From assembly GCA_003971905.1 (NCBI GenBank), contig RSEE01000067.1, forward strand, positions 62,001 to 126,000: DNA of 64,000 nucleotides, in the 5' to 3' direction. The notes beneath the pieces are model-generated. The model ran no database searches and had not been told where the DNA came from. It saw only the letters and a list, made by a program, of their open reading frames with translations. This document shows positions 5,778 to 64,000 of this stretch, piece after piece. The stretch comes from Moniliella sp. 'wahieum'. Taxonomy: Eukaryota. Both the position numbers and the translations under genes were made by a program. Numbering within the stretch: the stretch's first letter is position 1; the number at the start of each line of letters is the position of its first letter.

Positions 5778-6399
5778 CCAGAACGGCGGAAGCGGTACGC
5801 GGGGAAGCCAGCCGGCGATGGTGGCAGCGGCACGAGGGGGGTGGGTTGCGTTGCGTGCGAGCGACGAGAGCAGCCGCTGTGTCGGTTCTCGGCCAGCACA
5901 CGTGACTGGGTTCAAGCCTCACGTTGAGGCTCCAATCTTCAATCTTGAAGCTTCAAGCCGCAAGATAGCCAGCACATCTCTACATTTCAGCCCTGCCCCG
6001 TTTCACGTTTCGACGTTTCACGCGTCACGTGAAATGGCAAACGGGTTACCACCGGTCGGGCGCAGCCGCCCTTACGTCCCCGATGGAGGGTGTATGGTCG
6101 ATGATGCATGATGCATGGTTCAAAGTTGAAACCTGCAATTGCGTCCAGCTCTTCTTCCCCTCAGGCCCTTATAGGCCTCAGGTTAAGAGACCTTACCGTC
6201 CCTGGTCAACCTCGACTCCGATCGTTTGTCCTTTAGACCGCAGTACACCGCACGCGACGATTGCCATCTCCACTGCCATCGTGATGTCAAGTGGGATGGT
6301 GCTTGGAGACGGAGCTATGGTCTTCACATGCAACCAAAGCAAAGGTACCTTTTCATTCCTCAGAGTTTCTGTATGTGTGCAATGTGCACACAGGGGGAT

Positions 6400-6812
6400 A
6401 CCCGTTGCGGACGACGGGGAGGACGTGCTTAAAGTCGCTCCAGACAATCAATAGCTTACCGCCAAAGAGCTTTTGGCGCAGCTCGTGAGATGGGGAAATA
6501 CCACGCGAGCATGCGGTCGACAGCCTCATCCTGATAGCAGTGGACCGTAACTCCCTCTTCGTCTCAAACGATGATATGTACCTGGTTGAGCTTGTCCACG
6601 AGCTTGATGCCGCGTTTGACAGAGCAAGAACAGGTACTGAAGCAATTGAGAGATTTAAAAAGAAGAGTAGGCACAGTGGCACCGCATTCCAGTGGAAGGA
6701 CAGTGATGTCATTGAGGCCCTGTGTACACCGGAAGTGGACAAGGTGGGCATTGTAGTGAAGAGATCTGCCCGTTCCAGCCAGCCCCTTGATCAAGACGAT
6801 GGGCATGAGTGA
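6400..6812 (+). pseudogene. Orphan ORF relic or hypothetical protein
   Basis: Protein-like stretch ..AVDRNSLFVSNDDMYLVELVHELDAAFDRAR..QDDGHE*, preceded by an in-frame stop and a frameshift; no family recognised. Confidence 0.25.
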
Positions 6813-7678
6813 TCGCTGCTGCAAGCCAATACACTGCTTCGGCTGCTTCTAATCCACACGGAGAGAGGACCGTCCATTTCACGTCGATAGTACGAAGGAG
6901 GAGGTACTGCATCGTAGACAGGGTCATTTTCTTGCGCACGGTGAGGACCTGTTCAATCCGAAGGCAACAGCGAAGCCCGAATGAGAGGCGATCCCACACC
7001 TCTCATCGGGATGCGCCAGTTTCTTAGGACGGAGGGGGAAAACCAACCATCTTGCACATGTGTTGGCCAGAAAACCATATATAGCACACAAGGTCTTCTT
7101 GTCTTGTGTCGCCCCATCAAAAGTGTGGCAAATTTTCTCATCGTGATCCCAACCACAAAGAATCGGTCGTGTTCTGTGTTGGTCGTCCGGCATAGACTGC
7201 GTTTTACGGGGCGCTCCGGTTATCTCCGGACTCTGAGCCCCGCATGTCGTAGACATCTCAAATCTCAGCCCAACACGCGTCAGTCCTGTTAGACTAGCGG
7301 GAGAGAGCCACAGTCGATACCTTATCCATCATGTACGCAGCGTCAGCGCTTTGAGAGAACGGGCTGTGTACTAATTACACGTAGTCTTCACCTCTCTCTG
7401 GAAAGTGCCCCGGATTCTGTCTATACCTGTCACAAGTCATGGGGCACTTGAGGCCTGGTTCCTTCTGTTGGATATAAGCACCCACATGTCTGAGGTTTGC
7501 TAGCTGTGGTCCTTGTCGACCACCCTGTCTTTGACTCCCCGACTACCCTCCGTTCCTCTCTCGCCCTTCCACCTTCTACCACCCTTACCCTTACGGATTT
7601 ACGACTTATTAGGTCGAGGACGCTGCAAGCCGCGGTTACTCTCATCAGTAGCGCTTGCTCTTCTTTACGTCTCCTGTC

Positions 7679-8503: not shown

Positions 8504-8538
8504 CTGTCTGTTCCCGCCTAATACTACAGCATACCGAG

Positions 8539-8571: not shown

Positions 8572-9889
8572 CCGAGTGTAGTAACGCTGCGAGGAACAGA
8601 GTAACTTCGGAGCTCCTGGACCCCTTCAACTGGTCTAACCACCTACGTACGCGGCTCCTACCTCAGAGGGTCTGAGCTTGCGGCCTTTGTACGCAGGCAG
8701 CCGCCCAAACTAGAGGGTCTCTCCCTCACCTTTACACCCGCTCGGTTCAACCAGGATTTGAAGCAGCACCTAACGTATACGAGACACCGATTGGCCTGTT
8801 GTCCAATGGTTTATACCCCTAAACTACAGGGGGGGGTCATCGATGTCGGGACCCGCCCCCATGCCAGACTGGGCGGAAGGGCTAACATTAAAGAGATGAG
8901 AGAGGCCCCACCCTTCGCAGGAAAAGGATATGGTGATCGATGTGGGCGTCAGAGGCGGTGGCGTGCCAGGACCTGAATGTGCATAGGTGGTGTGGTAGAT
9001 CCACAGACTCACAGTTCGGCGTATCTGAGAGTGCGGGACCATGACGGAATCGGTACTTCTCTCCCTCCCTGTCAGCCTGTTGGCGCAGTTGCTTAACTTC
9101 GGCTTTGTTCGGCTTGTGCAAAGCAAAACAGGCTCAGGACAGGTTGGAGATAGCTACCGGTGTGCGTGGCGTGGCGCAAGGTTCAAGGTGCCAAGCATGA
9201 TCATGTCGATCAGGGACCCAACGTGCATACTCCGCCTGGTTCCAAAGCGGAGCGGCGAATGCCAAACGTTTGCTGGGGTTCGCTCCAGGTGTGGTCGTCG
9301 GCCGAGTGGCTCGTCGCGGCGTTGCGGCGGCGGTTGCGCCCAGACAGGTGCCGTGCCTTGAGCACAGCCGCGCACTCCTCGCAGCTGCACAGCTGCATCA
9401 TGCACATCATGCACATCATGTATCATACATCATGCATCACATGCGGCCAGCCCAGTGTCCGGCCGCGTCCAGCACGGGGCAGTGCAGCTGGCAGCACACG
9501 GCAGAATGCTCGTGGCTCCAGGCCAGTGCGTGGCTGGGGGCGGCCTGCTCCGACGCGACACGGACGCTGTGCTGCCCCTTCCAGCCTTGCCACGCAGCCC
9601 CGGATCTCCGATGGCATCATCACCCAGCACGGCGCCAGCCTCGCTGGGCTTGCTCCACCTCGGTCGCCGGCCGAGCAGGATCATCCGATCAGCGATCAAC
9701 GATCACCGAACAGTGACCCAAGGACCAACCAATGCAACACGCGTCGCTTCTGCGGCCGCAGTCCAAAGTAGTCGTCAACGTCGAGCGACATGCCATTTAA
9801 CATTTAATCCCCACCACCACCACCACCACCAGCTGCCCCCAGCAACCCCCCCCCCCCGCTCCAGCCTCCGCCAGCGTATCGACGACACC

Positions 9890-12063
<2,174 letters not shown>

Positions 12064-12557
12064 ACGCATCTGCTTCTACCGCCTCTCCGTGGCCCGCTTT
12101 CGACATGTTGCATACCCTTTTTATCCTGTCTTGACTCTTCTTCCCCCCCTCCCCCATCCCGTCCACAGGAGTATGTTCTGTCCGTCCGTACTATACTCTT
12201 GGCTACCAAAAAAGCTTCAATCAATCATAACCATCATATTTCCGGTCACTCGAGTTTCCCGCGTGGAGGGTCTTTGAACAGGCCTGCTTCGATACCGCTT
12301 CGTCCCAATGTCTGTAGAAGGGCGGGGTAAGGCGCGAGTGCTAGGATGTTCAGTGACTAGTGATGGATGGAGCCACCGAGCGGATAGCCTGGAGAGGGAG
12401 ACAACTCCTACGGCAGAGGAACAGGACTGCGTTTTTGAAACAATGCCCGCGCGCCTATTGCACCGATCAGCCTGCCTTTTTTTTTTTGGTGCCCGCCGAG
12501 CGAAGCTAGCTAACCCCGCCTTGTCTCCTCTGCTGTCCAACACCATCGGAACTCACC

Positions 12558-15430: not shown

Positions 15431-15946
15431 CTGTTACCCACCATGTAGAACCCCCCCAAAATCAAGTATTCACATTTGCATCGACACGAGTGCCCAGACA
15501 GACCATAATCGGATTCATTTGGCGACGCGATGGAGATTGAGACGCGCTCACAGAGACCATTCCCGACGGTTCCCTCGACCACCTTCTCCTGTTCTTGCGT
15601 CTGTTCCTCTTCCTCCGCCTGCGCTTTGGATATTGTACACAGACGAACGCGCCGGCAATGAGGACGTCGGGATAGACAGGGAGGTGGTTATGGCGCGTGA
15701 GCGCTGACATCATTATCCACGTGCATCGATGAGAAGATCCAGCATCGGTATCGATCGATCATCGATCGTCGATCATCGATCATGATGCATGAACCGAACG
15801 GGCGATTTTCAAATTGCAACGTTCACCTTCCGCCGCGCGCCTTCTCTCCAGGCGGCCCGCGCTGAGGCTGAAGGCCGCCTTCCACGTCGCTCCTCGCCCC
15901 CGTCCTCACGCCGCAACCCACCGCCGCCATCTGCCACCCTGCCGCC

Positions 15947-18784: not shown

Positions 18785-19654
18785 CAAAAGTGCTGTACAT
18801 CTCATCCTTCCCGCGGCACACCTTGACTCGCCTTATTCCGGAGGACAAGAAAAATATTTTCTGAACAAGGGACCACCAGCCCTATACGGCCTGGTCGGCA
18901 TGCCCTATACATTGATGCATGGTGCCGGTTTACCGTCGATCTGCTTTGCCTCGGGGCTTAGCCCCAGCCTGTCCCCATGTAGACAGACGGCTACGGTTCA
19001 CGTCCATCCTTCACCATATAGTCTACCGTTTCATATTCCACATCTCACACTTCCTGTGACCCTACCAATGGAATCGCTGGATGTCTTTACACTCCCTCCC
19101 AATTGTCCATCATGGCGGGGTGTGAATAGAGGGAAGTTCCAACGGAGTTGTGCGCGAATGGGAAAGTTAGAATACACTTGCCTAATATATACCAGCATCG
19201 TCTCTTCTGCGCTGATTGTCGCCACGTCAATGCAACCTCGCACAAGCTAGCGGGTGTGTGGCCAACAACAGCGCCGTTGTGCTTTTCTCCTGACTGATGC
19301 CCTTTTTTCGAGAGGAGCTGAGCTGTGGTCCATTTCCCCTCTGTACCTGTGCGCTCCCGCACACCGGAAGCGGCGCGGCCTTCCTGTGGTTGTAAGAGAC
19401 TGTGTTGGGGTTGACCAGATCCGCACTCAACTCGGGGTCGGTTTGATCCGCGCCGGCTCTGTCGATGCACGCGCGTGCGAACAGCTGTAACATGTAAACA
19501 GAACGCCCGCACAAATTGGTTGGATGGAGTATGAAATGTTCATATCAATTGCTGCCAATGTTTCCAAGCCCTATGCAGTCGGAAGGGCGGAATACCACGC
19601 TGCGGCATTGAGCCCATCGTAACACTCACCCCATGCTGGTAGTGTGGCAGGATC

Positions 19655-20543: not shown

Positions 20544-21505
20544 ACTGGATGGCATCCTCCCTTTCATCGGTATGTTTCCAAAAAGGCAAATCCCGGCCGC
20601 CTCGCGTTGTTTTTGCCAGTGTGTCGTTCCACCCACCGGCTACCTCGTTGATCATCGACCACATTTGCACATAGCAGTGTGCCTTTCAAGCTCCCACCAC
20701 ATTTCCACCACATCTTGTGGTGACTGGTTGATACCAACCAAAACAATAGCGATGGTCTATGGTCTATGGTCATTCATTGGTTGTGTCCTCTAGCTCCGTC
20801 ACCATCTGTGGATTCCCCTTGGGATGTCCACCACGAACGCGGATCGTAGGCTAATGAGATCTGATATGTGTGTACAACCACATGTCCTATCGGCCTCTGA
20901 GGGTCCAGAGAGATATGGGGAAACGGTATTAGTGGTGGCTACACATGAGGCAGTAATGTGGTACTCCCCTTTTTCGGGTGATTGCGATCTAGGGTTTTCC
21001 TGGTCCTTGGACAACGGGCCACGGCCGCCAAACGTGTCACTTAAGTAGAACAGGATCTTCGGCTAATTTGATCCTCTCTCGAACGGTTGAACAAAAAAGC
21101 GCCTCCCTGCGTTCCCCTCGCAGGCTGAACACCCCCTCTGCTTGCTCAACTTCCTTCTCTGTCTACTCCTGCCTCATTTCCCCCATCCAGACAGACGTGC
21201 TTGAAGACTTGAAGCTTGCGGTTAGCCGCTTTATCTTTTCCCGACTTGCTTCTTTCGAAATCGCTTGTATAGTTTTGTTGATGATGATGTCGATGATGAG
21301 CCCCTGTGGGTACTTTCGAGTCCCACTCAAGCACTCTGCAGAATGCCACGGACCCGCCTGGCTATCGATGCCAGCGAAGCGGTGAAAGAGGAAGCGCCAG
21401 ATAGAGTGTATGGACTCGAACAGTTGGTGCTTGCGGTGAGGTCACGGTAGCGGCACGTCTGTGGTAGAGAAGGAGAGATCAAGAAAAGAGGCGGACCAAG
21501 AAACG

Positions 21506-21691
21506 TGACGCGTGACGCATGACGCCAAGCAGGGTAGGGCTCGTCGAACGTCGAACCCAAATGGGAACTGTGGACTGCCCTAGTGCTATCATCCCGTGAA
21601 TGCGGCTATGAAATCTGAAATGTACTAGCCCTGATCGATGATCGATGATCGATGATCTCTGGCTCACACGTCACGCGTCATGCGTCATGCG
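21506..21691. repeat. Cluster of 7-nt-period TSA-N4 arrays upstream of LYS1
   Basis: TGA CGCG TGA CGCA TGA (21506); (TGA TCGA)x3 TGA (21632); TCA CACG TCA CGCG TCA TGCG TCA TGCG (21664). Confidence 0.85.
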
Positions 21692-22095
21692 CCCCTGTGC
21701 CCCATGTCACTGTCCCCGCAGTGCCCCATCGATCAGGCGCACTCATCGATATCAGCCTGATAGCTCGGCGTCAGCGGCTCACCGATGTTTGAATGTTTCG
21801 CTTTTTTTTTTCACCGCGCGCGGGCTTTTCCGTTCTTCCGTCAGCGCGTCACCATTGTAAGAGTCGTATCTCCGTCGTGGAGAAGAAAAAACCGGTTCGT
21901 CGCAAATCCGGGCAGCTGGATATGAGCGCTGAGCCCAAGCCTAGTCACAGCCACAGTCACAGCTGCCAGACAGCTAACCCGACCGCCATAAAAAGCCCGT
22001 GCGAGGCTTTTCTTCCGTTGCCCCCCCCCCACCATTCGCGACACCCCTCCCCCCCCCCACTGCCCCACTTTCGTCCCTCCAGCCCACCACCCAGA

Positions 22096-23274: not shown

Positions 23275-24364
23275 TGGGCTTAGAACATTTCTTCTATTCA
23301 CAGTCCCCGTAATACCTTTACAACAAAACGCGCTTGCGCAAGTGTCCAACTCCAGGTTCCACCATCTCTTTATTCGTTCTCCAACATCTCTACTTCTCGT
23401 TTTATACTGATGGCTGTCCTTGTCTAATCAACTGAACATGTCATGCTTCTACTGTGCCGACAACGATAGTAGGGAAACGTCAGGATCAGACAGGTCCCGT
23501 CACTAGAACAACTAGACACTCGAAACAGCTAGACACTCGTGGGATTCTCAGCGGAGTCCTGTGTGTGGAGGAGACTGGATACTGGATTCCAATGGCGACA
23601 AACTGGAAGAACAAAAACAAAACCTATAGTGTGGTCACTGGTCTGTGACTGCTGCAAAGTTGGGAGATGCACCAGAGTTGTCTGAACCAAAGCTAAAGAA
23701 TGCCCTTTTGGTAACCACGAAGAACGCGCGCGAAGTGACAACAGCCCAGGGGTACAGACAGCGGACGCCATGGCACAACGTTGGATGTTCCATGGATGGG
23801 ATGCTGAGTGCAGCTGTGAGGATTCGGGTGAGTTTGCTGGCGTAAATGTTGGTTGGTGCCAGAGGGAGCGCAGAACCTCTGTCATGCATCACCGATCATC
23901 ATACATCATACATCATCGACCACCGGTCATCGACGGACAAAGCCTATTCACTGCGATAATCGACCAACAACCGACAATCGACAATCGATAAACTCGCGAA
24001 TGGGTTATCGGTGATCACATCGGCGTGATCGGCGTGATGGATGGATCGTGGGTCTCACCTGAGGCGGAGGGTGTGGAGGCGCTGAGGGCGTTGAGGCCGC
24101 CGGGGCCTCTCAGATCTCAGATCTCGAGCTTCAAGCGAAGCTTCAAGCATGTCAGGCTTGGGTACGCGGCAACTGGTGACTTCTACGTGGCGCGTTTCAA
24201 ACGTTCAGGCGCCGGACAGCGTGCGCGTGTGTGGGCGTGGGGCGCGCGCGTCCATGCTGCGTGCATCTCGATCGAAGTTCCAACGTCCAATATATTTTTG
24301 CGGGTGTTGTCTTTTCCGCCCAACGCCGCCAGCTCGCCACCACCAGCCCCCCAATCCGGCTGCC

Positions 24365-30398: not shown

Positions 30399-31192
30399 GG
30401 CGAAGGCAGGTGGTTGGTGGGAAGGGAAGGGAGCGTGCGATTGGCCTTGGCTTCCAGCGTCGGGCGGCCGGCAAGGAGCTGCCAGGTTCAAGCTTCAACT
30501 GAAGCTTCAGCTTGATCGATCCCACTGTGTGGCGTCCGTACTCACGCTGCGCGCCCATCCGCCCGCCATGGCTTCCGCCGTGGCCCGGGTGCAGCACACA
30601 GCCCCGTGCTCCGCCGCCCAGCCTTCTCCGGGACCCGGGCCGGAGTGAGGCGATGGCCCGAAGATGGCCGATTCCAATTCATTTTGGCCACGTCTGCTCC
30701 GGCGCAACCGGTTTCCCCCAACCGGCACCCGGAGGCCAGCCGGTGACCGGAGCCGGTTTGTCTCCGTCCACCACAAGTCTGTACTACGCGTGGACCAAAA
30801 GCCAATCTGTCCTCCTACTGCCGTGCCAATTCCGTGGTTGATCGCACACTGCTATGGCATGCTGCTGTGTGGTCAGACTTATACTTACTTCTTAGGTCTT
30901 AAAACAGTGCCACCATAAGGAGGAAAGAGGGGGGACGATGACTCCTGCCTGGTTGGGAAACAGCAACAGGGGGGAGCATGGAGCAGCATCGAAGAGGCAG
31001 TGAACCCACACCCATATATGACAGTGGCGCGGACACAGAACACGACCTATCATCAGGATGCAAAGCGCTTTTGCGATATGTATGGGGAAGGGCAGAGGAG
31101 GGTGCAGGCGTGAAGCTCGAAGAGACAAGGGAAACCTGGGAAACCGGTAAAATGTGGCACACACGCCTTGGTCGAGAACTTAAAGTGAGTGG

Positions 31193-33614: not shown

Positions 33615-33656
33615 TGATGCATGATGTGTGACATGCGATGCATGACATGTGAATCA
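33615..33656. repeat. 7-nt-period TGA-N4 array
   Basis: TGA TGCA TGA TGTG TGA CATG CGA TGCA TGA CATG TGA ATCA (6 units in phase). Confidence 0.85.
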
Positions 33657-34218: not shown

Positions 34219-37200
34219 TCGAAGTCGAGCCAAAAAGAAAAAGAGGAAAAGAGGCTGCCGGGTGGAAACCGATGACCAATCGTGACCGGGGAAGGTACAG
34301 AAGAGGAGGACATAGAAGGCCCAAGGGCGCTATGGGGGCTACCGATCAAAAAGCGCGCGACGGGAGTGAGACCGTCTTGATCATATGTATGTGTGTGCCT
34401 GGATGATGGGCGTTTTCTTTTCCCTCTGTGGTCAATTTCAATGGCATCGTGCTGCTCGTTTTCCTTTCCCCACACGTACTGCTCTGGAGCCACTATTCAA
34501 TAGACCACATCTGCCACTCATCTCTCCGTTGCCAACATATACTAATCCAGAGCAATAAGATGGCCCGGTCACATGGTCACAAGTAATTCTCTCGCGGGGA
34601 AGATGCGGGGAGATACGACTTGCCCTACTACCCGCCCGTAACCCCTTTCTCGAGCCCATCCTCTGTGTTTTGTCCTAGATAACACTCTCCATAAACCCCT
34701 TTTCTCTCACCTTGCCCCACCTTGCGCTTTAAGGCTATATTCAGGGGAAGGAGTCCGGCTGGCCCTTTTGAGCTCTCCAACAGTGACAGAGACTAAGTGT
34801 CTCATCGGTCGTGCTTAGATCTTAGATTTGAGCCGTTCCACTTCTTCGGTTTGCACTGGATTATGTATCTTCCTCTCCCATTGCATGATGTCATGATGTG
34901 CTCAATTCTCGTAGACTCGTAGTCGGATGCCGTGCAATCGACAATCATTTTAATCATGCATCACGCATCATGCCGTAGATCTTCTACGTATTGAACACCA
35001 GGCACCAGATGGCGGTGATACTGACGCGTGACGCGTGACCATGCATCACCTAGGCGGGCGCTTTGATTCAAGCACCCCGCCACAGGCCGGTATCTTTTCG
35101 GTCTGGCCTTTGCGGGGCAATGCGAAACACCCCTTGCAGTTCGTGTGGGGTGCGGAAAGACAAGGCAAAACATCATTTATTGCCACAGCACTATATCCCA
35201 CCGTAAACACAGCGCCTTTCGGTGCCTCCTTTTTCCTGATGTCTGAGGGGGTCGGGGTTATCCGGTCATCGATTATCGCGGTGTGTGGGGTTTCCCAATG
35301 TCAAAAAGGCCGTTTCTGCCCTGAGACCTCAGGCACCTCAGGCCTCTCAGATCTCAGCCCCCTCAGGCCTCTCAGCCCCCTCAGGCACAACGAATGTCTG
35401 AGGCATCATTAATCACTGGCCCCAAGATGCATGATGCATTGAAAATGCACCGGCCTACTGATCGATGGCCGAGTAGGAGAAACCCAGGTCTGAATACAAA
35501 TGTCGTCTCCCCTCCTCGACCTCCTCCGCCGGCCTCGCATTTCCATACTATTGCGATAGGCGTTTTCGGACCAAAGTAGACACCGGCCGGTGACGCGATG
35601 CGCATGTCTCGAGACGATGTTTTTTGCAGCGCTTGCTTCCCCACACCTCTTGTGGCCGCGACAATCCCAGGCACATGTCCACAGTTCTCCGGCGCTCCCC
35701 CGCACGCTGTCAAACGTTAACGCCGCACACGATGCTCTCCAACCCACATGTTCTTCCAGGTGTTGGACTAGGGAGCCGGACGGGCAGAAGGATGAGGCTC
35801 ATCCCTGAGGGCCTGAGGCGGCCTGAGGCCTGAGGAGAGAAGGTGATGAATTAGAGCCAGAGTTGGGTTTGTAGGTGCAGAGGCATCTATTTAGGAGGCC
35901 GGACTAGGCACAGGACCAGTGAGGCACACAGGAGGCAACGCAGGGCTTAGGGGCAGTGTCATGGTGGGACGATACCAGCAGTGTTGCTGATGGAACCGAG
36001 GCGAGCCTGGTCTACCTGTTGGGAGCCGGAGGATCACAGTCAACACCCGGAGTCGAACAACTCGAGGAAGAGTACTATTATATGAAGGAAAATAGGAGCT
36101 TCCCGTACAACGTACCTCATATGGCATTCACTGAATGACACACTTCACGGCATAAAAATCATCTCCTCTCAGCGGTGTTATGGACGAGAAGGAGAGCATA
36201 TACGAACCCTGCGGAGCCTACAAGTTTCCCTCTTGTCTCTTTTGCTTGTGGGTTGTGTTTTTTCAAGACCAGGGGGGGGGGGGGCTTGTCCCATCACAAA
36301 ACACAATATATCCAACTTTACTTCGAAAGGAGCATGTTCTCCCTTTCCTATTTGTGGGCAACCTGCCGATCGAATCCCTTCCCCTCGGCCGAGATCCTTT
36401 CTTTGTTGGTCTCCGTTACGTTCTGAAGGTTTAGTCGAGTTCTTCCAATGATATCAGGGCATTTGTTCTATCCTGTTTCGTGTTTTGCGTCTCCATTCCA
36501 TTCAACTCTCTGTTAATATAAAGAGATTGCAAAGCTTGAAGTCGTCGGTGGTTCCTCGCTCGGATGTCAACCACGTTCCTCCGTGTCCACACGCGCTTCC
36601 TAGGGTACGGGACCGGATGGCAAGAACCGGAGGGTCCTGATATCCTGGCGATCCCACTGGTTGCTTGACCTTAGTGGCGCCCCCAAAAGTAACCCCCGCA
36701 AGATGAACGGTTAGGTGTAGACGCAGCGTTCCCCCTGTCCCAGCCTTAAGCACTGACGTGATCTAAGGACTGCAGGTACAGTTTGATCTTGTTCAATCGG
36801 GCGCAATATTACAAATGGAACCTTTTGCCACACGCGAGCCAAAGCCCTGATGTGGATTTCACTTCGACACTATAGCGCCGATCTGATCCATCACCAGTAA
36901 GTTTTTAGTATCGGTATGAAATGAGTGGTCTCTTCTCCTTCAAAGAATGCACACTCCTAACTTGTACGCCGGGCGCCACCGTCCTCGTTGCGTGCCTACT
37001 ACAAATGGGAAACGCTGTTTTCACCATGGGCTGGTCCATTCGCGAGCCTATATCTCACTCAAAAGCGATAGTCATCCGCTGTGACATTTTCGTCGTGTTT
37101 GGCCATGCGTTTTGACACCGCTTTTTGGGAGGGGGATGTTTCGCCATCACGGTTGCGACTCTTCCAAAAGGAGCAGATCAACACAGAGAGGGAGTGCATC

Positions 37201-48374: not shown

Positions 48375-50390
48375 GACCCTATTTGAACAGTATACGCAAA
48401 GGATGGTGGGGAGACAAGAGAGGTCCACGCGGCCAGAGACCTGAAAAGGGGATCGTCTGGGTTGGATCCCAAGCTTGCTTGCGGCTGCCCAATCTCAATA
48501 CGTGGCCGTTATTAAACACCTGTTATGCAGCTCAAGAAACTTCCTTTTTGGTGTGACATACGACTTGTGACCCTCGCTCCAATGACGATGGGATGAGCAT
48601 CCGGGATGCCAAGGACAGACGTGCATATAGGGCGGGACACAGACGTTGTGCAGTGAGCATCATATCTGCGGCGAGGCGTGCACTCTTTGGGTTAAAACAG
48701 ATCGTGAGACGTGGTTAAAGACGTTTTGCGCGAATAAAAGGAACTCTATTTCATTCTCGAAATGTCTTCAACCGTCACACGCTTCACATCAGTCTTGACT
48801 TGACGCTTCAGACTGGAATCCCGAGGGCTTCAGGCCCTCAAGCCTCATGCATCATGAGCCATGGTTAGCAAAACGGAAGTAGCTTGGCTACCGACTATCC
48901 TGCAGAGATTTTTTCTCTTGCGTAACGCAGACAACGCAGCGATGAAGAGAAACAGCGGGAGTCTAAGGAGGGCCACAGACGCAAGGGCTGATGAGAAATT
49001 AAGATGGAGACTACAGTCTTTCGAAGGCATAAGGGAGCCTAAAACGGCGGGCTCTGTAGAATTGCTATACGGGTGCTTTCCATAATGCCATGGTCTATAT
49101 TGGCAACACGCGGCGTTCCTACTATGGCCTTCATGCGTCAGGTGAGGCCTCAGGGAGAACGAGGGTGTCACCAACACGTGGAGGAGACGTGCACAAGAAG
49201 TGCCCGGCTTGGCTTGCTTGGCTTAGCTTGGCCTGCCAGAGGAGGGCAGAGGGGCAGTGTGCTGTGGTGGTGCTCATTGGTGTCGGACAGGTGTGCCTAG
49301 GTAAGTCAGGCAGCGTGCCATAGATGTCGTAAGGGAAGGGTCCAGGAACCAAATGAATGTACCATGCATGGACCAAAAGGTAACCAGGACATGCCTGGCA
49401 CCCCCCAGGCTACGCTGGTCACCGGTCACCGGCCAAACTCATGTGTCACGCGTCAACCCAATAGAAGGGCCAAGAAAACATAAAGCTCCGCTGTCTTACA
49501 GGTTAGTGTTCCTCGGCCAGATCATAGTATTGATCTCTCCGTGGGACCAAGGGTCTTGAGATTCTTTTTCAATTTTCACAATGCACACTCCCTGTCACCG
49601 TCACTAGGGCCTACCACACCGTCGGTCTCTCGGATCAGAATTGCCTTTCGGTGGGGGGTATAGGATCTGGGAGCGGGGGGCGCCTGGGCGCGCAATACGT
49701 CACGCGTCAGCACGGCGAACTCCGATACAACTTCGGGTGGTTCATGCATTGATGCTGGATGCGCTGATGCAGCACTGTGATGCGCGACAAGCGGGTGGTC
49801 AGGAGGGAGAAGTGCGTCATACATCTTGCAGATGTCCTGCCCACCACACTATGTTCATCGGTCCATCCGTCTACCTCTCCCCTCTCGGTCCTCGCGCTCC
49901 ATCCGTCGAAGACTTGGAAATGAAAATATGGCGGGAGCTGGAGGGTCTTGGCCTGCTGGTGGTGGTGACGTCGTCTTCGGCCTCTTGCTTGTGGGCGAGC
50001 GCACTGACAGCAAACGCCGGATGTGAGCGAGCTTGAATCATGACAGGCGAAACGTCCCGTATTCTAATAATGTTACTGCTCATTCAGTAGCACTAGTACA
50101 CAGCTCTACTCGGTTGAGCAGTAAAGACCACCTACCGCATCGTTTGCCATGTGATTTTTAACCAACTCCTTCTTTATACCCTCTGCTACCAGTTCTCCCC
50201 ATCTCAATAATGTTGATCAAGTTGTCTGTGAGAGGGTCATTCGTGCCCCTTAAGCCATATATATACTGGCTTAAACGCCTTCCGAGATGACCACACACAC
50301 GCTAGTCTCCGAGGGATTAATTGCAATGTGAAAACACACCATCGGTCTCTCTCTTTCTCATCATGACCAACTTCTCTCATTGTGCATTGT

Positions 50391-50911
50391 CATGGGGGAA
50401 GTCCCGAGGTGGGACCCCCTCCTGTAGTTTAGGCATACAAACCTTGGAACGGCCAATCGGAGCCACGTACGGTATGTCCGGCCTCATATCGTAGTCGAAC
50501 CGAGCGGGCGCAGAGGCGAGGGAGAGATCCTCTAGGTTGGGTGGCTGCCTGTGCGTGCCAAAAGGCCGCAGCTCAGACTCTCTGAGGAAGGAACAGCGTA
50601 TGTAATTCGCCAGACCAGTTGAAGGGCCCGTCTTGGAGCTCCGGGGTAACGTGGGTTACCTGAGACGTTGCCACACTCGACGCAAAGTGTAATAGGCGGA
50701 ATCAGACGGAGACCTAATGAAGAGCACAAACGTTATTGAGACTGTGTAACATAACCGTACGAGGGCCACAGTTAGCAAGCCTTAGACAGGGCTGTCCATA
50801 TACAGGAGGAACCAGGCCTCAAGTGCCTCATGATGCATGTCAGCTATAAAATAGAACATGGGGAACTTTCCAGAGAGAATAGCCCGTGCTCCCAGAGAGG
50901 CGCTGACGCTG
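50391..50911 (-). repeat. Dispersed diverged repeat or gene relic, copy 2 (uninterrupted; weak similarity may extend to about 51205)
   Basis: Reverse complement aligns with 7338-7515, 7640-7678 and 8504-8863, and carries the empty sites of both insertions. Confidence 0.85.
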
Positions 50912-52212
50912 GCCAATCGGGCGCAGCAGGTATTAGGAGGTTTTCTGTCAGACTGGCCACGATGCAAGTTACCAGAGGTCACCTGGGAGTAAGATAACAT
51001 TGTGATGTTGTGGATGGCAATTGCGTACAGGGAGGCATCAGAATTTGGCCATCTCGCCTCCACGCCTCACGACCCCCTGCAGCTCAAACGAGCACGCGGG
51101 TAATGGGACGGAGGGTGGCCAGGTCATCGGAAGGCGACATCGACCGCGAAGGGAAGGGCCTTTGCTCCTCACTGCTTAAGGGCAGACGTACAAGAACCAA
51201 AGGATTCATCCTCTGCCCTGTAAGTTGTGGCTCAAAAATAGAGCTGGCCAGACTCGGAAGATAACTGTATGCACAGATTCTGCTGAGAATGGTCTTGGTT
51301 TGCAGACAGGGAGCCACCACACACGCCCTTTTATACCCTGCTCGTCCAAGTGCGCTGTGAAAAAAATGCTATGGCATGTCAAAATTGTGCACTAGGGTTG
51401 CTAGGGCCTCCCCAGCCTCCACATCCTTACCTCCACCAGTCAACTAGTCAAATACCGGAGTTTACAGCGTCGCTCGGGAGCACTATGGGCGGCATTGAGT
51501 GAGACCCGAGCTGAGGCACTGCACGCTCGCTGAGCGGCTGATCATCGATCATCGATCAGCGCGCTGAGCCGCTCCGCCTGGCCCGCTCTGAGCGGCTGAG
51601 CGCTGGCTAAGCGTTCTGAGCTTCAAAACGTGCAAAAGGCATGGAGATTATCGATTATCGGGGTGACATGTTCCACCTTACCGGCGGTTTAGCCGTAGGG
51701 AGGGGTTGCAGAAAAGCGAGATGAAGTTATGAAGCTTGAAGCTTGAAGCGAACAACAGCAGCGCGTGTCATGCACGTGGCCGGAGGGTGCGGCGCCTGCC
51801 ATCAAAAACATCTTCAGCTTGTGTTTGTTGAGGGATTCCTCATAGGGTGTTGCTAGCACTGATGTTGGAGCTTGAAGCTTCTAACCGTCGACACCGGTAC
51901 CATTTACAACGTTTTGCGGCGGGGGGGGTGGGGGCACTGCAGGGGCAACCCTTCGCCCCATGAAGCCACACCCGGGCATTACTGCAGCCGTGACATGAGT
52001 GACAGTCGATGGCCGGGATTGAATATTGACTTGATAACATCAGGTCGATTTACCACCGGTTACCACTTACGTCTAGGGCGTAGCTACAAGCTACGCGGAC
52101 AATCTGGATACGCTGAGGTCGACAGACCAATTGGCAAGGCAAGTACACATTAAGCACAGAGACATGGGGGAAAGCTGGAGGTATCGGGTCCAGAAAAAAA
52201 GGGGGGAGCCAA

Positions 52213-53801
52213 TTAGTGGTCAATGATGCTCAAGTTGCCCGAGATAAGCTGTTCTCGAGGACAGCGCCATCTGGAATGGCAATCGAGTTGCCCGTCGTGG
52301 CGACGATAATGACCGTACCGCGGAGAGAGGTGTTGCGACCAAAGGTCACGTCACCTGAAACGGTGAGGTGGTCCAGCTCAACCATCTCGGGGATGGACTT
52401 GAAGCGCTTCTGGAAATCAGACACCTTTTTAAACGTATCGCCCAGCTTGACCACCGGCGGCACATCCGCACCAAACTGTCGCCGCGGGTTGGCGATCAGG
52501 CGGCCGTGTTGAAGGGTGTAGAGGTCCGAGGTGATCAACAGCAGGTCTGACGTGCTCTTCACGGGCAAGAAGCGAGAACGCGGCACATTGACACCGATCG
52601 CACCACGGAAGTGCTTGATCGCCGCGCCAACAGCCGTCTCGAGCTGGATCACTGGCTCTCCCGAGGGCAAGGCCTTGTTGTTCACAATGATCTCCAGGTC
52701 CAGTTCCTCCTCATCCAGCACGCGCTTGACCGCCTTTAGATCGAGCCAAAGGTTGTTGGTGTTGAAGATGGAGAACTTGGACACACTCTTGAACTCGTCC
52801 ACGTGCTCCGAAGGAACTTGCGCCACCTCCAAAAGACGGATGGTGCCCTCATAGTCAATCAGCGTACCACCCTTGATGTCGGCCTTGGTCTTGTCAGTGA
52901 CCTCAGAGATGTACTCGGCACCCGAGTCGAGCATGTGCTGGAAGATGTTGAAGTCCACAACAGCACCGAGGTTGTCAACGTTGGAGACGAAAACGTGGGT
53001 CTTGCCGGCAGCAAGAAGACGGTCGAGCAAGCCCGAGTTGTTGAGGGCGTCGAACAAGTCGCCATGGCCGGGCGGGTACCAGAGGTTCTTGTCGGCCGTA
53101 GCGGAGCGCGGGCAAGGGAGGAGGCTCTCCTTGTTGACGCGGGGGTAGCGGCTCTGGTTGAAGGTAAGGATCTGGACATTGTGGTTCTCGTACTTTTGAA
53201 TAACGCGAGCAGTGTCATCGTCCGTGTTAAACGAGTTCATCAAGATAAACGGCACATTCACGTCGTACTGAGTGTTGAGGTGCTCAATCTGCCGCACCGA
53301 CAGGTCGAGGAAAGTCATGCCGTCCCGCACTTCAATCACACTCTTGGGACCCACGCACCCCATCGTCGTTCCCAAGCCACCGTTAAGCTTGAGCACAGCA
53401 AGTTTCGACAGGGAGGCACGCATGTCAGTGGGCGTGGCCAGCTTGGAGTAGGGAATGATCTGGTCGGCCGAGGGGGACTTGACCTTGCTCCAGTCGCTGT
53501 GGGATGGGAGGGGGGGGCGGCAAGTCAGTTACGATGAGGTAGGGGGGTGGAAGAATGCAGCGCAAGAGGTTGGAACGTACAGCTTCTCGCCCTTGGCCTT
53601 CTCGGCAAGATAGCGGTTGAAGAGGGTAAAGAAGCCGCTCATCTCGGCGTCAAACGCGCGGCGGGCAGCCGGGTCTTCGACGCCAGCAATCAGCTGGTTG
53701 AGCTCGTTGCGCATGGCCTTGCTGGCAATGCCAGTGGTGGCGCTCTGAAAGTCGATGTTGCTGGCACCACGGGTGCGGGGGTTGGGCTTGTCGAGAACCA
53801 T
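52213..53801 (-). CDS. UGP1: UTP--glucose-1-phosphate uridylyltransferase; intron about 53498-53579; single-base deletion near 52245
   Basis: [68 protein letters not shown], ending LSIIDH. Confidence 0.98.
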
Positions 53802-54289: not shown

Positions 54290-54467
54290 TCATCGATCAT
54301 CGATCATGATCATCGATCATCGATCTCATGTGGTCATCGACATCGGCACCGGGCTCACCGGCCACTATCACGAAGTCACTACCCAAGTCACTCACTACTC
54401 ACTAGTCACTAGTCAGACTCAGGCTTCAAGCTCTGCAAGCTTCAAGCTCTGCAAGCTTCAAGCTTCC
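54290..54467. repeat. Cluster of 7-nt-period TCA-N4 arrays upstream of UGP1
   Basis: TCA TCGA repeats (54290-54324); TCA CTAC TCA CTAG TCA CTAG TCA (54392-54415); TCA GGCT TCA AGCT ... (54419-54467). Confidence 0.85.
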
Positions 54468-55521
54468 AATCGCCAGTGCCAGTGAGAGCGACTTGCTGTT
54501 TCCTTCGACAACGGCAAAACGCGTTTCACCTGCACCGCTCGCCACACGCCAGCCACAGAGGAGGTGGAACCGTGGCACCATAGGGATCATCGATTATCCA
54601 ATGGCCACGTGCTGTTTGGCGCAGCGCAGCCCATCAGCTGTATCCTTTTGCATCCCGTTGTATCCTTTTGTGCCCTGCTGTATCAGACCTATCAGGCCCA
54701 AATCGTGGGCATTCATATTCATGCACATGCATCATGTCCTTGTGTGCGTCCTGTCGACTTGCGCACTGGCCCTAGGCCCCGCCATGCCATCTAGCGCATG
54801 TCCCATGTCGCTCGTTGCGCAACGGGCCTCGGGAGAGATCGCGTCGGGGGAGAAAGATAGGATCGGGCTGAGGTGCCCGGTGCAGGCTCGGAAACGCTGA
54901 GCCTCAGCCTTCAGTGAAGCTTCAGAGCCAGTTTCTGCATGCAACTGCATGATGCATGATGCATAAGATCAAGCCTTCCGATATGTGGGCCGCCACACTC
55001 ACCAGCTGCCAGATGCAAGTGCGCATTGGATATTGGCACCACTCCGTCTCCACAATCAGAAAGCATCGATCATTAATAAGGCCTAAGGACTAAGGCCTAA
55101 GGCAAGGGAGTCGTGGTAGGCACTGTGATACTTCAACGTCAGGCCTCAGACAGACCAATCAGGCGCACACAAGGGCACACTCGCTCACCTGACCTACTTC
55201 CACCCCACGCAAGAGTCACGATGGATTAAAAAGTCCCTCAAGCCCATCATATATGATCTCTGACTACTACCAAAATCGTATATGGATGTGCACACACCAA
55301 AAGAATGCGAAAAGGCAGATGCCATTTTTGAGGGGCAGAATGGGATAGCTGACGAACAAAGAGAAGGCAGGATGAGAGCAATGGTGGGGAGGAAAATGCC
55401 AGGGGTTGAGACACTGCTTCGAACGAAGGCAAAGCAAAGCGACAGGGAAAGAATGGGAGCCGATCGGAGACCACGCCCATAGGGAAGACAACGAGGGAAG
55501 GGACCAAGTCCGCATAGCCAT

Positions 55522-56130: not shown

Positions 56131-56435
56131 CTTTGGTCGGTCAAAGGCGCGGCAGCGCGGCCCCTTTGTCCTGCTATCCCATCAATTGGACGCAGGGGTG
56201 GTGAAGCTGGCCAGGGGGCAACCCTAACCCGAAGCGGAGGGCCGCAGCGGTCAAGTGGGCGCCCCCGTGCCTCGCCCACCGGACCCAACCCTAGTTTAAT
56301 GTCCGCCCGCGAGTGGGTTGGGCGGTGGCAGCCCTGCACCGTAATCGATAATCGGAAAGCCAGCCAAGACGAGCAGGTAGGTAGGTGCCGGAGTAGCCGC
56401 CCAAGCCCGCGTCACGAGCTTCTCCCACCGCACCC
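56131..56435. promoter_or_regulatory. Bidirectional RPL15/RPL5 promoter with two AACCCTA motifs (56220, 56287)
   Basis: 305 nt between divergent ATGs; AACCCTAA and AACCCTAG present. Confidence 0.6.
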
Positions 56436-59344: not shown

Positions 59345-60236
59345 GGCGAGGAGAGTGGGGGGGAGGGGTGGGGGGGGGGGTGGAGTGGGCGGGGAAGGCG
59401 CTTCGGGGGAGCGGAGTGGGACGCCGGCCGCCGCCTGGCTGGGGCGGGGGCGAGCGTAGGGGCGGGTGGGCGGCGAATTGCTGCGCACTGCCTTGCGCGC
59501 TCCAGACCCACACGAGTGTCTTACGTCATGCGTCATAAGGGCGGGCGCGCCGATCCCAGCACACGGCGGCACTGGTTGCGCTCAGCCAGCTCGGCCACCC
59601 GCCACCCTGTCGCCTGCTGCGCAGCACGCGGGGGCAGTGCGCCGCGGCGTCGCTGCGCCGATGCTCGATCTCAGATCTCACACGGGCCCCAGGCCGCGCT
59701 CGCCTGCCCATTAATTAAGCATCACACACTGCTGCCCGCCGATCAGCGATGGGCTTCAGCGGCCCAACCGCAGCAGCCCGGCAGCTCAAGAGTGCCCCAG
59801 TGCTCTGCCTCAGCCCCCCCGCGGGCTGGTTCGCATCGCCCTTTCTATGGCAGCTGCTCAGCGGTGTGCTGATCGATGATCCAGCCATGCGCAGAGCACA
59901 GGGGCAGTGTGCGGGCGGTGGAGGCCCCCCAGGCCACCGCCGCGCATCTGCTACGGCGTCTTGGGGTGGCACAGCCGAGAACCCTAGAATCTTGGCTGCC
60001 ACCGCGCTGGCCGCAGGGCGCAAGTGTTGTGGGCGAGTGCCGAGCCCCAGTGGTTCGCAGGGGCGCGGGGCGAGCCGGGGTGGCAGGCGGTGGCTGTGCA
60101 CCAGATGCCGAAGCTGACAAGCAGCGGCAAGAGAAGCGGCAAGCAAGCGCCGGCAAGCACTCGGCTGCTGCGGCCTGCTACGGAAGGGTGGGCTGCGCTC
60201 ACTAAAAACGTTAGTGACTGATCTTTCTCCTTCTGG

Positions 60237-60285: not shown

Positions 60286-60592
60286 CTTTGGTGGTAATAG
60301 CTCTCCTATGTGGAATCGGCACCGGCTCGTTGTCGACTGGCAATAGCAGCCCTGAGTATCGCGACCATCAAATACAGTCTTTGATTCCATCGCAAGATCG
60401 ATGATCGACATGGGGGGGAGTAGTAGTAGGTCCAGCGTAAAATTGCATATGGCGGGGGGAGGGGGGGGGTGCATAAACATGGCGCAATTGTACATGGAAG
60501 CAATGGTATATCGTCGATGAGAATATTCAAAGTGGGGAAAGGGACCGGATGTAGGGCGACGAGGAGGGATTGATGTCAAAACAACAAAGAGT

Positions 60593-61631
60593 TCATGCCC
60601 CGTACCCGCCACGAACGGGGTAGGAACCATAATCAAACGACTGGACCCGTGGTGCTGGAGAGGCCGTGACCGTGCCATAGCGAGCACGGTAGTAGGCCAT
60701 TTCTTCGGCATCTTCTTCTTGTGGCTCGTATTGATCCAAAGCATAACTCGATTCATAGTATCCGCCACCTGATTCCTTCTCATACTCCCCCCGGGCTCGT
60801 CGTAGGGTTGTTTTTCCTGTTCCTGCGCCTCCACATCATCGGGTGCCGCAGGCGCATGATTCCCTCGCGCCCGCTCGGCACGCCAAGAAAGGAAAAATAG
60901 AACGGCAGTACAACTCATAGATACTGAAAGTGCTGGGTCAAGTGAAGCTCCTGTACAAAGGATGAAGGTTGAGACATACCAAGTAATAGCCACAGAAACG
61001 CTGTGGCGGCGCCCTTTGATCCACAAAAGCCACCCAGAGCCTTGACGTAGGCGTCGTGGTCAGCGACCTTGGCTGGGTCATCACCATGATGTTTGCATCC
61101 TTTGCTGGTACCGATCGAAATAGTTTGGGCCAGAGTGGTGATGGCGACAAGGGTAAGAGGGACGAGGCGGAAGATGAAGCCAGGGCGAGTGAGCCGGATG
61201 AAACTGCCGGCTTTGAGAATAGTGGAGGAGGTGCTGCGGATGGAGAGAATAGACAATGCAAGCAATGCCCGCAACTGGCCAAGGTAAAAAGCGAGATAAA
61301 GATGAGAAAGCCGCTGAGGCCACTAGGGCTTCCAAGCCACTTGTGCTGAAACGCAGCCAGGCAAGCTGCACAAATGAGCAAGATCAAACTGAACAGTATG
61401 CTCACAATGAGTGAAAGCAACTCCCATCGCGAGACATCCTGACATTTGAATAGGTTAGCCTCGGTCAAAGGTAGTGATGTAGTGTCGAAAGGGGAAGAGG
61501 TGGGAACATACCGCATGCGCATACGTTGGTTCAGCACTTGGCTGGCCTCCCATGATGCCGCCCGATGATGGTGGTGGGGGGATCTTTGTGGAGGAAGTCA
61601 TTTTTTCACCCCAAGAACGCATGTTAACCAT
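60593..61631 (-). CDS. Four-TM (MARVEL-like) membrane protein with acidic Tyr-rich tail; intron about 61440-61511; frameshifted
   Basis: Four hydrophobic segments (LLSLIVSILFSLILLICAACL; GFLIFISLFTL; LVAITTLAQTIS; after CGSK, ATAFLWLL..) plus GTATGT..GCTAAC..CAG introns. Confidence 0.6.
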
Positions 61632-64000
61632 GGTAGGTGGTACGCCAGATATGGTGGGGAAGAAACACAAATGCCCCTCCTTGGCGTTCTTGGATATATA
61701 TACAAGGGCCATTAGCGTAAAAGACCCTGGACCCAAAGTAGATGTCCGAACGGTGGCGCAGCGTATGCATGGTTTCCCACGAGGGAAGGTCCCCCCGCGC
61801 CAGGGCGGGTAAGAGAAACAAATGGCTTTTCCTTGTGGTATGTGGGCGGACGGCTGCACACCCCTTCACACATGCTCAGTGCTTACAGGCTGTAGAATAT
61901 ACCTGCACGGAAACAAGAACCATGGATTACATCATCCATCTCGCCACACATCACATGCATCACATGCATCGCCCCATGCATCATGCATCCCCAGCTGCAA
62001 TGTTCAAATCGCATATTCATCTAGGTGTCTTGCATTTACCCCAGTTTGTAGAAGCTCAGTGTGTTGAGCGAGGAGAATTGGCAAAACCCAGGGGCGCAAT
62101 AATAAGAAACAGGAGAAACGTCTTGGCCGGCAGGCACGCCCATCCGACGTTTGCCACAACTTGAGCCCATCTAATTAGAAGGCAAAAGCCATCGCCAGCA
62201 GGCCAGATAAGCGCAAGAAAAAAAACTCTATACTGCAACCATATCATTGACAGAGCTTAAGGCTGTGTGAGCCAAAGAAACGCTGCGCCTAAATCAACCC
62301 GTTCATCCTGCGTGTGCTCCTTGTTAGCGCCAGCCCCGGAACCAGGAGAATTGCCAGGAGGTAAGTAACCTCTGGTGCCCGCCATCCGTTTACCAGAGGA
62401 AGCATGTATGTGTGGGCACGGCTGAACGTGATAAAAACATCCGAGCGAGGGGCCATATCTCCGTTGAGAGTCAGTAGTCAACTCCTTCCAGTGCCCTAGC
62501 ATCTTGCCCGCTGTCTTGGTGTGCTGTAGTTTACTGGCATGTCAAAACCAGGGGGAAAAACGGCTCTTGATGGGTGCGTCCCTGGTACTTGGCGTTCTTG
62601 TCGCATTCTGCTTGCTCCAGCAGCCACAAGTAGCTCCTTCTCCGGCGTTCCAAAGGCGTCGCGGTGTGCTCTCATGTACCGCCTTACTACAACAGGACAT
62701 GGAGAGGAGGAAAGGATGAGGATCATATTCATCGAGTGGAAAGAAAGAGAGGTATATATGCCTCGGAGAAGAAGAGACATGCGAGCTGATAAGTCACACG
62801 GAGGGGAAGAGGGAACACAATCCAAAGGGAAAAAAAACAGGGTATAGAACAAATCAAGGGGGCCAGACAACTTGGTGACAAAACGAGATCTTATCCCGAC
62901 ACTTATGGTAGGCGATCGGCGCCTGCTGCGTTCCTGAGTCGCGCAGCGGGTGGTCCACCTCCATTCCTGTGGTCCTCCGATTGCTCTAGGCCCCATCACG
63001 CGGTAGCAAGTACGTATGCAAATACTATACGAATTCGTTTTTGTTTGCATCTCCGGCATGTCACAAACAAAATGGGGCAAACAAGTAATTGTAATAAGGG
63101 TCCGAAGCGACAATGCATGGTGAAGGACGAAAGAGTGAAGAGCAAACAAACTATAGTAGTACAGCGGTAGATTGCATGTTATACTGCGAGGTTAACGTTT
63201 AACCGGGGCTTTTATAATAGCTGTTGACCTTTTAATGTGTGATGTGGCTGCAGTCAACCGTAAGAGTTTGTTGGGGGGGGGTCTCTAACTCTATAAGAGA
63301 GTTACTAAGATTATGAGAGAGGATGTATGCGTTTTGTAAGCCTATGTGGGGATTAGTCGGAGAGTGGGTTCAAAGTCGTGAAGCTTGAAGTGCGGGTATA
63401 TGCGATGTTGCTAAAACCCTAACCCGAGTAGCCGAGAGCAAAAAATGTCCGGAATCGAGAGAGTTCGTCTTTCTTTAACCGGGGTATTGACAACCCCTTC
63501 ATAAGAGACGGCCATTGGGGGGTTGTTGGCCCAGCAGGCCACGGGAACGTAGGTGCTGAGATGATTCTGTGTGGGAGCATGCCTTAATAGTGGGCTAAAT
63601 ACGTATGGAACAAGGGGGGGGGGCAGAAAAGAAAAGGGGCAGGATGCTAATAACAGCTTCAGTCCTCAACAAGCCTTTGTGGGAAAACTACTAACATATG
63701 TTTCGTCTCTCCACACCCATAGTCATTGGATTAAAACCGTCTCGCCACAGCCGGTGTTGAATATTGCGCACGTACAGTTGCAAAAGAGAAAGCTGCAAGG
63801 CATGAGGTGAAAGCAGCGTTGTGCCGTAGTATCTGTGCCCGGAAATACCGTCCATCCGTTCAGAGAGCAAAAGGGGGGAAGAGCGAGCTTAGCGCTTAGG
63901 ATTGATGTTGCTGATGGTGACGGTAGGTGAAAAGGATGAGAGATATACTCCATAGATACATCTCGGGCCGTCTCGGCGACAGGCCTCCTCTGATATCATA

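Follow-up and report, generated by a model that had tools for sequence, protein, structure and literature searches.

A seven-nucleotide T-N-A and palindrome signature in the intergenic DNA of a smut-related fungus: most likely scars of hairpin-mediated breakage and rejoining

Introduction

DNA ends that are closed as hairpins, reopened and rejoined have been described in several systems. In V(D)J recombination, Artemis opens the hairpins formed by RAG mainly at the +2 position, two nucleotides (nt) 3' of the tip, to leave 4-nt 3' overhangs, and the resulting coding joints carry even numbers of palindromic (P) nucleotides, mostly two, together with microhomology at the joint (PMC2175297). Excision of hAT elements such as Ac/Ds and Hermes leaves, in fungi as well, a target duplication with P insertions derived from hairpinned flanks, the palindromes being odd and centred on the complement of the element-adjacent base (PMC5873905, PMC2921059); the hAT target duplication measures 8 base pairs (bp), that of the fungal hAT7 group 7 bp (PMC12730594). 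The CMCT transposases (EnSpm/CACTA, Transib, Plavaka, ESTA) are related to RAG1, possess C(2)C and H motifs, and are associated with target site duplications (TSDs) of 2-5 bp and CA..TG termini, while Kyakuja elements (KDZ, Agaricomycotina) have 7-bp TSDs and no terminal inverted repeats (TIRs) (PMC12730594). Galileo, a member of the P superfamily, has a 7-bp TSD and a palindromic preference with the consensus GTANTAC (PMC4168063). The present analysis concerns a signature that resembles and differs from each of these: short units of T-N-A followed by a palindromic tetramer, repeated with a period of seven, in a stretch of 64,000 nt from Moniliella sp. 'wahieum' (G000:C67:62001-126000; hereafter the window).

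The window belongs to an assembly of 69.5 Mb in 223 contigs. Its RPL5 is 79% identical to that of Tilletiaria anomala, the top named basidiomycete match, and 72-75% identical to those of other Ustilaginomycotina; by this protein, the host is a smut-related fungus without a close annotated relative. Contig C57 carries a second haplotype of the window at 83-97% identity, and more distant paralogous copies are also present, so that comparison is possible inside one assembly. A preliminary description, made from the letters of the window, had listed more than 25 arrays and read them either as a promoter code or as the product of a fold-back or template-switch process. Its gene labels were mostly borne out, with a Pfam match in 16 of 21 open reading frame pieces.

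A period-seven rule specific to T-N-A

The rule shared by these arrays despite their differing sequences is confirmed: a strict regular expression finds 62 chains in the window, and the arrays listed earlier coincide with such chains at the same place or a few bases off. Palindromic cores make up 75 of the 201 TNA-N4-TNA cores, against 8.4±2.8 in 100 block-wise dinucleotide shuffles of the window, and among TNA-TNA distances from 3 to 29 only 7 clearly exceeds the shuffles (z=4.8). In a 264-kb sample, consisting of the window and 100 kb each of contigs C1 and C2, cores are palindromic in 321 of 786 cases and all 16 palindromic tetramers occur. The other three hexamer framings of the same sample yield 95/1865, 84/1539 and 25/479; these framings (GNC, CNG, ANT), as well as periods 5, 6 and 9-13, do not rise above, or stay close to, chance. 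In the whole genome the double unit occurs 2457 times for AGCT, 777 times for CGCG and 679 times for CCGG, the reversed patterns 0, 0 and 6 times. The pattern is thus real, genome-wide, and specific to T-N-A and to period 7; extrapolation from the 264 kb gives about 75,000 units in the whole assembly.

Some particulars of the preliminary description require correction. Its count of about 11 of the 16 palindromic tetramers was too low, as 14 are found in the window, and cores composed of A and T, which it had not seen, are present (TTAA at 35406 and 55070, ATAT at 52020, TATA at 55247). The GCGC array placed near 51597 is imperfect (TGA GCGC TGG); strict GCGC units lie at 15698, 21923 and 63889. 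Period-7 arrays of non-palindromic units, outside the rule, were also observed (L164:1685-1755 and L162:607-678).

How a unit arises

Unit births were read by aligning the window to C57 and across seven allelic pairs. At several sites a single TNA in one haplotype of the window corresponds to a copy with seven additional, non-tandem bases in the other, as in the following rows (from the alignment, no strand assigned):

23945..23953: single TCA in the window; C57 has [AT TCA] AT [AT TCA], core ATAT
49593..49600: single TG-TCA in the window; C57 has [TG TCA] CA [TG TCA], impossible by tandem slippage
50484..50490: single TCA-TA in the window; C57 has [TCA TA] TA [TCA TA]
52018..52029: [AT TGA] AT [AT TGA] in the window; C57 has a single copy (aligned as an 8-nt gap beside a G run)

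As read from such alleles, ab-TNA-xy becomes ab-TNA-xy-y'x'-TNA-xy, or the mirror image, with a net gain of seven bases that comprises a duplication and two P nucleotides. The 4-nt core is, on this reading of the sequences, a flank followed by its own reverse complement, and is set by the neighbouring bases. About 10 distinct non-tandem +7 allelic differences outside existing arrays were read by hand, six being TNA with P nucleotides, two CCA with P nucleotides and two without; in the CCA events (L162:73, and L025/L004 on C3) the P pair lies on the A side. For the haplotype comparison 12 regions were taken, two of which (L031, L032) were excluded for mismatch to the window. The aligned columns number 40,137 and contain 1,674 substitutions; of their 15 seven-base indels, 9 fall inside units, as do 1/15 of five, 1/10 of six, 3/12 of eight and 1/8 of nine bases.

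The units themselves bear the same mark. Of the 356 palindromic units in 291 kb, 291 show the same N twice and 36 its complement, which identifies the units as direct duplications and not inversions. The 291 same-N units match the right flank only in 86 cases, the left only in 82, both in 80 and neither in 43. A single unit born in this way should agree with one flank over just two bases. Among 168 single same-N units the commonest outcomes are indeed two matching bases on one side and none on the other, (0,2) with 28 and (2,0) with 24 units; a further base matches with a chance of 0.78 up to the second base and of 0.42 past it. In strict 5-bp duplications with two nucleotides between the copies, these two are the P sequence in 65 of 93 TNA cases, compared with 52 of 679 others; the frames CNA (11/45) and GNA (8/42) are mildly enriched, TNG, TNC and TNT are not. 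The 97 sites that could be reconstructed show little preference beyond TNA, save for older units 7 bases away.

These data bear directly on two rival explanations. In the first, a polymerase would switch templates or snap back at a nick, the nascent end folding back two or three bases and re-priming 5-7 bases upstream. Such a process would create duplications with inverted bases without any element, could use the T before NA as a one-base re-priming match, and could yield the double fold-back class described below. It would, however, have to prime without a loop and without pairing, and should act at GNC, CNG and ANT too, where the spacer is the P sequence in 6/188, 5/129 and 3/116 cases; moreover, the return point was never observed more than 7 bases back, suggesting a fixed DNA end. 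We consider this explanation distinctly improbable. In the second, the arrays are ordinary microsatellites grown by slippage, aided by mismatch hairpins as in CNG repeats. Uniform multi-unit arrays do differ by whole units between alleles, but the majority of units, at 12 bases, fall short of two full copies, and the pair that is inserted does not repeat the pair beside it, an exact-copy rule being followed in later expansions only; no enrichment is seen for other framings of the palindrome-plus-one kind or for periods 5 and 9. Slippage would account for growth but not for birth, and as a sole cause, contradicted by the non-tandem allelic pairs, it has almost no credence left.

The preliminary description had remarked that an in-phase change of core within an array exceeds what slippage of a single unit explains. 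This remark was right, the switch being attributable to two hits on one site: a site struck once from each side would read ab-TNA-b'a'ab-TNA-xyy'x'-TNA-xy. Of 14 mixed-core chains, 7 have both cores predicted by the two flanks, and the right flank is predictive in 11. One example is

33963..33983: mixed-core chain cc-TTA-GGCC-TTA-CTAG-TTA-ct, the two flanks of which predict both cores

Minor classes and the duplicated target

Rarer products extend this picture. A 7-bp duplication with two P nucleotides occurs in 7/24 TNA cases against 12/114 others (8-bp duplications 0/3, 9-bp 0/1), and one with a single P nucleotide in 15/24 TNA cases, of which 12/15 show a 1-nt microhomology overlap. The period-8 form with a CG core is found 323 times genome-wide against 6 for the control. 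Among 100 period-8 rows listed, some of them tandem arrays, a count by eye finds 95 in which the two copies agree in the base before TNA and 72 with the microhomology base, where about 37 are expected. Period-11 cases with P nucleotides from both ends account for 3/34, and a class xy-y'x'-xy for 5/10 strict cases. The rarer 8-, 9- and 11-nt classes point to a duplicated 7-bp target whose hairpinned ends are opened about 2 nt off the tip and rejoined. The target is probably the 7-bp sequence abTNAxy, symmetric about N, of which the main product shows a 5-bp repeat.

Distribution of units

With gene limits set by hand, 2 units of the window fall in gene bodies (33.6 kb), 23 in divergent spacers (11.7 kb), 47 in tandem spacers (14.5 kb) and none in convergent spacers (1.85 kb). 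The earlier statement that arrays lie upstream of gene starts holds as far as it goes, but they do not lie only there: in tandem spacers, units are found both before starts and some hundred bases past the neighbour's stop, many of them 200-700 nt behind it. Nor is it correct that coding sequences contain none, since there are two gene-body exceptions:

11766..11775: 10-mer within the GFA1 coding region, no strand assigned
53383..53392: 10-mer within UGP1, no strand assigned

A decaying transposase copy on contig C17 offers a neutral comparison:

L162:3000-6224 (G000:C17), strand not given: decaying CACTA-like transposase pseudogene (PF02992) upstream of a P-loop gene, which we take to be XRCC2-like; its allele is on C62

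In the 3.2 kb of this pseudogene none of 159 TNA sites carries a unit; the adjoining 3 kb upstream, with 115 TNA sites, contain 11 units, several of them polymorphic. Long terminal repeat (LTR) elements contain 0-1 units, and are possibly too young to show any. Purifying selection explains the avoidance of genes but not that of neutral DNA such as the pseudogene, and the events seem, from their positions, to be directed to accessible, non-genic DNA. No flanking motif near the arrays is enriched more than 2.6-fold.

The strong bias toward divergent and tandem spacers over gene bodies and convergent spacers speaks for a selected promoter code, read by a general factor recognizing TNA-N4-TNA or DNA shape. 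Such a reader would need neither palindromic cores nor one-sided copies of a flank. The upstream regions of the 7 GFA1 and 6 UGP1 copies in the assembly share no core or position, the C13 copy having no unit at all, which argues against a conserved code, and the presence of units differs between alleles. With cores that follow the local flank, allelic presence and absence, and dissimilar paralogous promoters, the code proposed in the preliminary description is unsupported and very improbable, although the arrays may have a later, secondary effect on expression.

The same distribution bears on the suspicion of a base-calling or assembly artefact in an error-prone long-read assembly. Genes in this assembly do show many 1-2 base indels, and the units were read from the assembly sequence. 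Most units are nevertheless common to allelic contigs; genes, LTR elements and the pseudogene lack them apart from the exceptions given above; and errors would not reverse-copy the local flank at TNA only. An artefact is exceedingly unlikely.

A proposed mechanism

The units are most likely scars of a hairpin-mediated duplicate-and-rejoin process acting at nnTNAnn in accessible intergenic DNA. The duplication-plus-P rule is read directly from the sequences, and from it we infer the hairpin, the stagger, the repair path and the enzyme. Palindromic additions that lack a loop point to an opened covalent hairpin. Firstly, a cut with a 7-nt stagger followed by fill-in would duplicate the 7 bp abTNAxy, as in insertion by a cut-and-paste transposase. 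Secondly, both flanks would be sealed as hairpins exactly at the junction, in the RAG/Transib manner that gives an even palindrome, upon excision or an aborted insertion. An Artemis- or Pso2-like nuclease would open these hairpins about 2 nt off the tip, the ends then carrying xy-y'x' and b'a'-ab, and end joining would usually retain one of the two 4-nt overhangs, which gives period 7, and where more is retained, periods 8, 9 and 11. Repeat hits at the same accessible site would add in-phase units and may change the core, and slippage afterwards would lengthen uniform arrays. The enzyme would most likely be a DDE transposase, mobile or domesticated, with a preference for nnTNAnn in open DNA outside genes; after insertion and excision, or an insertion that is aborted, a cut-and-paste transposase leaves behind a target that is duplicated and has hairpinned flanks. 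The fold-back process envisaged in the preliminary description was therefore right in kind, covalent hairpin ends on a 7-bp target being favoured over polymerase template switching. That hairpin ends are involved appears highly probable from the form of the scars; to the full reading, with a transposase as their source, we assign a probability of roughly 0.62.

An enzyme of the host other than a transposase, for example a topoisomerase-like protein bound to the 5' end, with fill-in closing the hairpin, might make 7-nt staggers at TNA in open chromatin without any element being inserted. The sequence signature would be identical, the events are still polymorphic between alleles, and the searches reported below recovered almost no DNA transposases and no element with a 7-bp TSD in about 310 kb. 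The tyrosine recombinase profile, however, has no match in the genome, whereas the control matched in 14/14. The staggers of Top2 and Spo11, at 4 and 2, are both even, and we know of no fungal host enzyme with a 7-nt stagger; such an origin is unlikely.

Candidate enzymes and elements

Twelve transposase and recombinase profiles were run on the genome, and PF02992 alone matched; PF13359, PF05699, PF18758, PF10551, PF12940, PF00589, PF18759, PF13358, PF21787, PF14372 and PF18803 have no match in it. The only DNA-transposase genes found are two CACTA-like genes, on C17 (above) and on C34:

L164:1762-5372 (G000:C34), minus strand: CACTA-like transposase gene, single copy, no TIR (PF02992)

The C34 gene retains D, D, CxxC, DxxH and an E at the profile position, and consists of long open pieces with no internal stops and about three frame breaks, like host genes in this assembly. 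It lies about 300 bp behind a triose-phosphate transporter gene, and no second allele of the region is present in the assembly. The Atlas clusters closest to it consist of basidiomycete PF02992 proteins; a RAG1 cluster, at 0.91, is a lead only. Word-based homologue searches with the gene were blank, and a single-sequence fold (pLDDT 34) was unusable. It is the sole candidate found, nothing ties it to the scars, and its being their source is doubtful. A somewhat better, though still unlikely, possibility is an element-independent RAG-like nuclease of this fungal lineage, possibly the C34 gene, that would time and again cut and rejoin the fungus's own open regulatory DNA at nnTNAnn.

The C17 copy, in which H replaces the first catalytic D, was rejected as a current source: allelic pN/pS is 0.8-1.9 in 5 of its 6 pieces (0.25 in the last), compared with 0.08-0.25 in neighbouring genes and 0-0.11 in LYS1. 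Of the further controls, UGP1 gave 1.42 on 11 changes and RPL5 showed no changes.

A search of about 310 kb, less than 0.5% of the assembly, for TIR elements with TSDs of 4-10 bp returned chance-like matches only, and no convincing CA..TG inverted termini were seen in L162, L164 or the same 310 kb.

Comparison with known systems

The signature works, by analogy, like RAG coding joints and hAT footprints and fits no family tested. As in V(D)J coding joints, the P nucleotides are even and mostly two, the putative hairpin would be opened at +2, and microhomology is seen at the joint. Unlike V(D)J recombination, there are no signal sequences and no deletion of a segment, both ends would come from one duplicated 7-bp site, and the scars keep P nucleotides in most joints, whereas most coding joints lose them; a RAG1 profile has no match in the genome. 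Target duplications with P insertions are likewise shared with hAT excision, but here the palindromes are even, and the odd, Ac-type form is unenriched at TNA-centred 7-bp targets (3/15 against 40/380 elsewhere). The hAT profiles PF05699 and PF14372, unmatched in the genome, have no match in the control genomes either.

The two CACTA-like genes belong with the CMCT transposases, and the even P nucleotides (65/93) are those expected of a flank hairpin at the exact junction, as in CMCT and RAG reactions, if the flanks are indeed hairpinned. Kyakuja elements would share the 7-bp TSD and, having no TIRs, belong to a kind of element to which the TIR-based scan used here is blind; the KDZ and CxC2 profiles match neither the genome nor the controls. 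Galileo shares a TSD of 7 bp as well as the palindromic preference, but its consensus has an ANT centre, while the centre here is TNA and the ANT framing is at chance; a P-type profile has no match in the genome. A 7-bp, TNA-centred target with even P nucleotides that matches no tested family suggests an undescribed transposase chemistry or a host nuclease. No description of the signature was found in a literature search of listings and abstracts. In metagenomes, at least 121 loci contain a triple AGCT unit, and the longer of these loci show no excess of other palindromic cores in their flanks.

Several observations weigh against the transposase-based hairpin reading. Eleven of the 12 profiles are unmatched, although seven of these are also silent in control genomes and are thus weak blanks. 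Neither the 310 kb nor the surroundings of the two CACTA-like genes yielded an element with inverted termini and a 7-bp TSD, and the 2-5 bp TSDs and CA..TG termini published for CMCT elements (PMC12730594) differ from the 7 bp put forward here, for which no termini were found. Counts in the 7-bp classes are small, there is no enrichment of exact 7-bp duplications lacking P nucleotides (34/405), and the xy-y'x'-xy class needs a second fold-back, outside what the model predicts. The 43 units of 291 that match neither flank are also to be set against it, as is the dominance of a single product, tidier than Ac footprints. Finally, the allelic differences are unpolarised.

Inventory of the window

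The remaining units of the window are as follows (no strand assigned; the first and fourth rows rest on the regular expression and Pfam):

5946..6111: three units (AGCT, CGCG, TGCA) in a degenerate 7-nt tract upstream of a mitochondrial carrier gene (NDT1-like)
9391..9439: TGCA unit and a period-9 variant upstream of GFA1
12354..12363: CTAG unit in the spacer between GFA1 and the next gene
15698..15792: GCGC, TCGA and TGCA units upstream of a DnaJ-domain (SWA2-like) gene
19488..19497: CATG unit upstream of RPS1
20855..21932: cluster of GATC, CGCG, a three-unit TCGA chain, CGCG and GCGC in the RPS1-LYS1 spacer
23882..24119: TGCA and GATC units in the LYS1-NPR2 spacer
30488..30509: two AGCT units upstream of ETF-alpha
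33615..35833: dense cluster of 18 10-mers in the divergent spacer between a sugar transporter and tricalbin, with several length differences against C57
43164..43960: ACGT, CATG, AGCT and GGCC units upstream of a KH-domain gene; at 43166 C57 carries an additional ACGT unit
48845..52029: 11 10-mers from KRE6 to the 3' end of UGP1
54290..55256: dense cluster of 14 10-mers (TCGA, CTAG, AGCT, TGCA, TTAA, GGCC, TATA) from the UGP1 start to the RPL15 stop
56342..56351: TCGA unit in the RPL15/RPL5 divergent promoter
59671..59879: GATC and TCGA units upstream of an aspartic protease
63192..63898: ACGT, AGCT and GCGC units, past the range of the preliminary description

Genome copies and other insertions

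Searches in which about 40 candidates were scored each place RPL5 and RPS1 at 12 loci apiece, GFA1 at 7, UGP1 at 6 and LYS1 at 2, most copies forming close allelic pairs whose identity to the window is 79-92%. These copy numbers suggest that a genome which is multiply polyploid and fractionated, and has kept its ribosomal genes, was assembled as a diploid, or that related genomes are mixed. Stretches of C57 expected opposite window positions 9000-10000 and 15000-16000 have no match, and GFA1 is not among the C57 matches; judged by the alignment, there is a rearrangement or offset between the haplotypes over window 1-21800.

Other insertions were also observed. Window 7680-8504 is a solo LTR with a 5-bp target duplication, of which many copies exist at 85-98% identity, some paired 6 kb apart. 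An insertion of about 245 bp at 36522-36766, missing from C57, is bounded by short inverted ends and what looks like a 3-bp duplication; many copies at about 94% exist of a 206-bp part of it, and a 46-bp piece of its end is inserted in C57 at the position of window 43427. A 466-bp stretch at 34269-34735, likewise missing from C57, has no evident termini. Dispersed repeats occupy 50384-50930 (about 20 copies at 76-83%) and 51025-51425 (4 copies at about 90%).

Significance

The signature described here is very clean and very abundant, its chemistry is readable, and its fresh units still differ between alleles. It constitutes an intergenic 'grammar' without a reader, illustrating that break repair can write sequence that resembles a promoter code. 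The scars keep a record over time of which DNA was accessible, and with them promoter turnover can be dated among the many paralogues of this genome. Were the enzyme domesticated, it would be a RAG-like mutator of fungal regulatory DNA. If it were the element-independent nuclease considered above, the fungus would harbour a standing mutator aimed at promoters, leaving palindromic 6-mers, which are candidate factor sites, at about one scar per kb, and a CMCT transposase would have led by a second route to a hairpin recombinase of the host.

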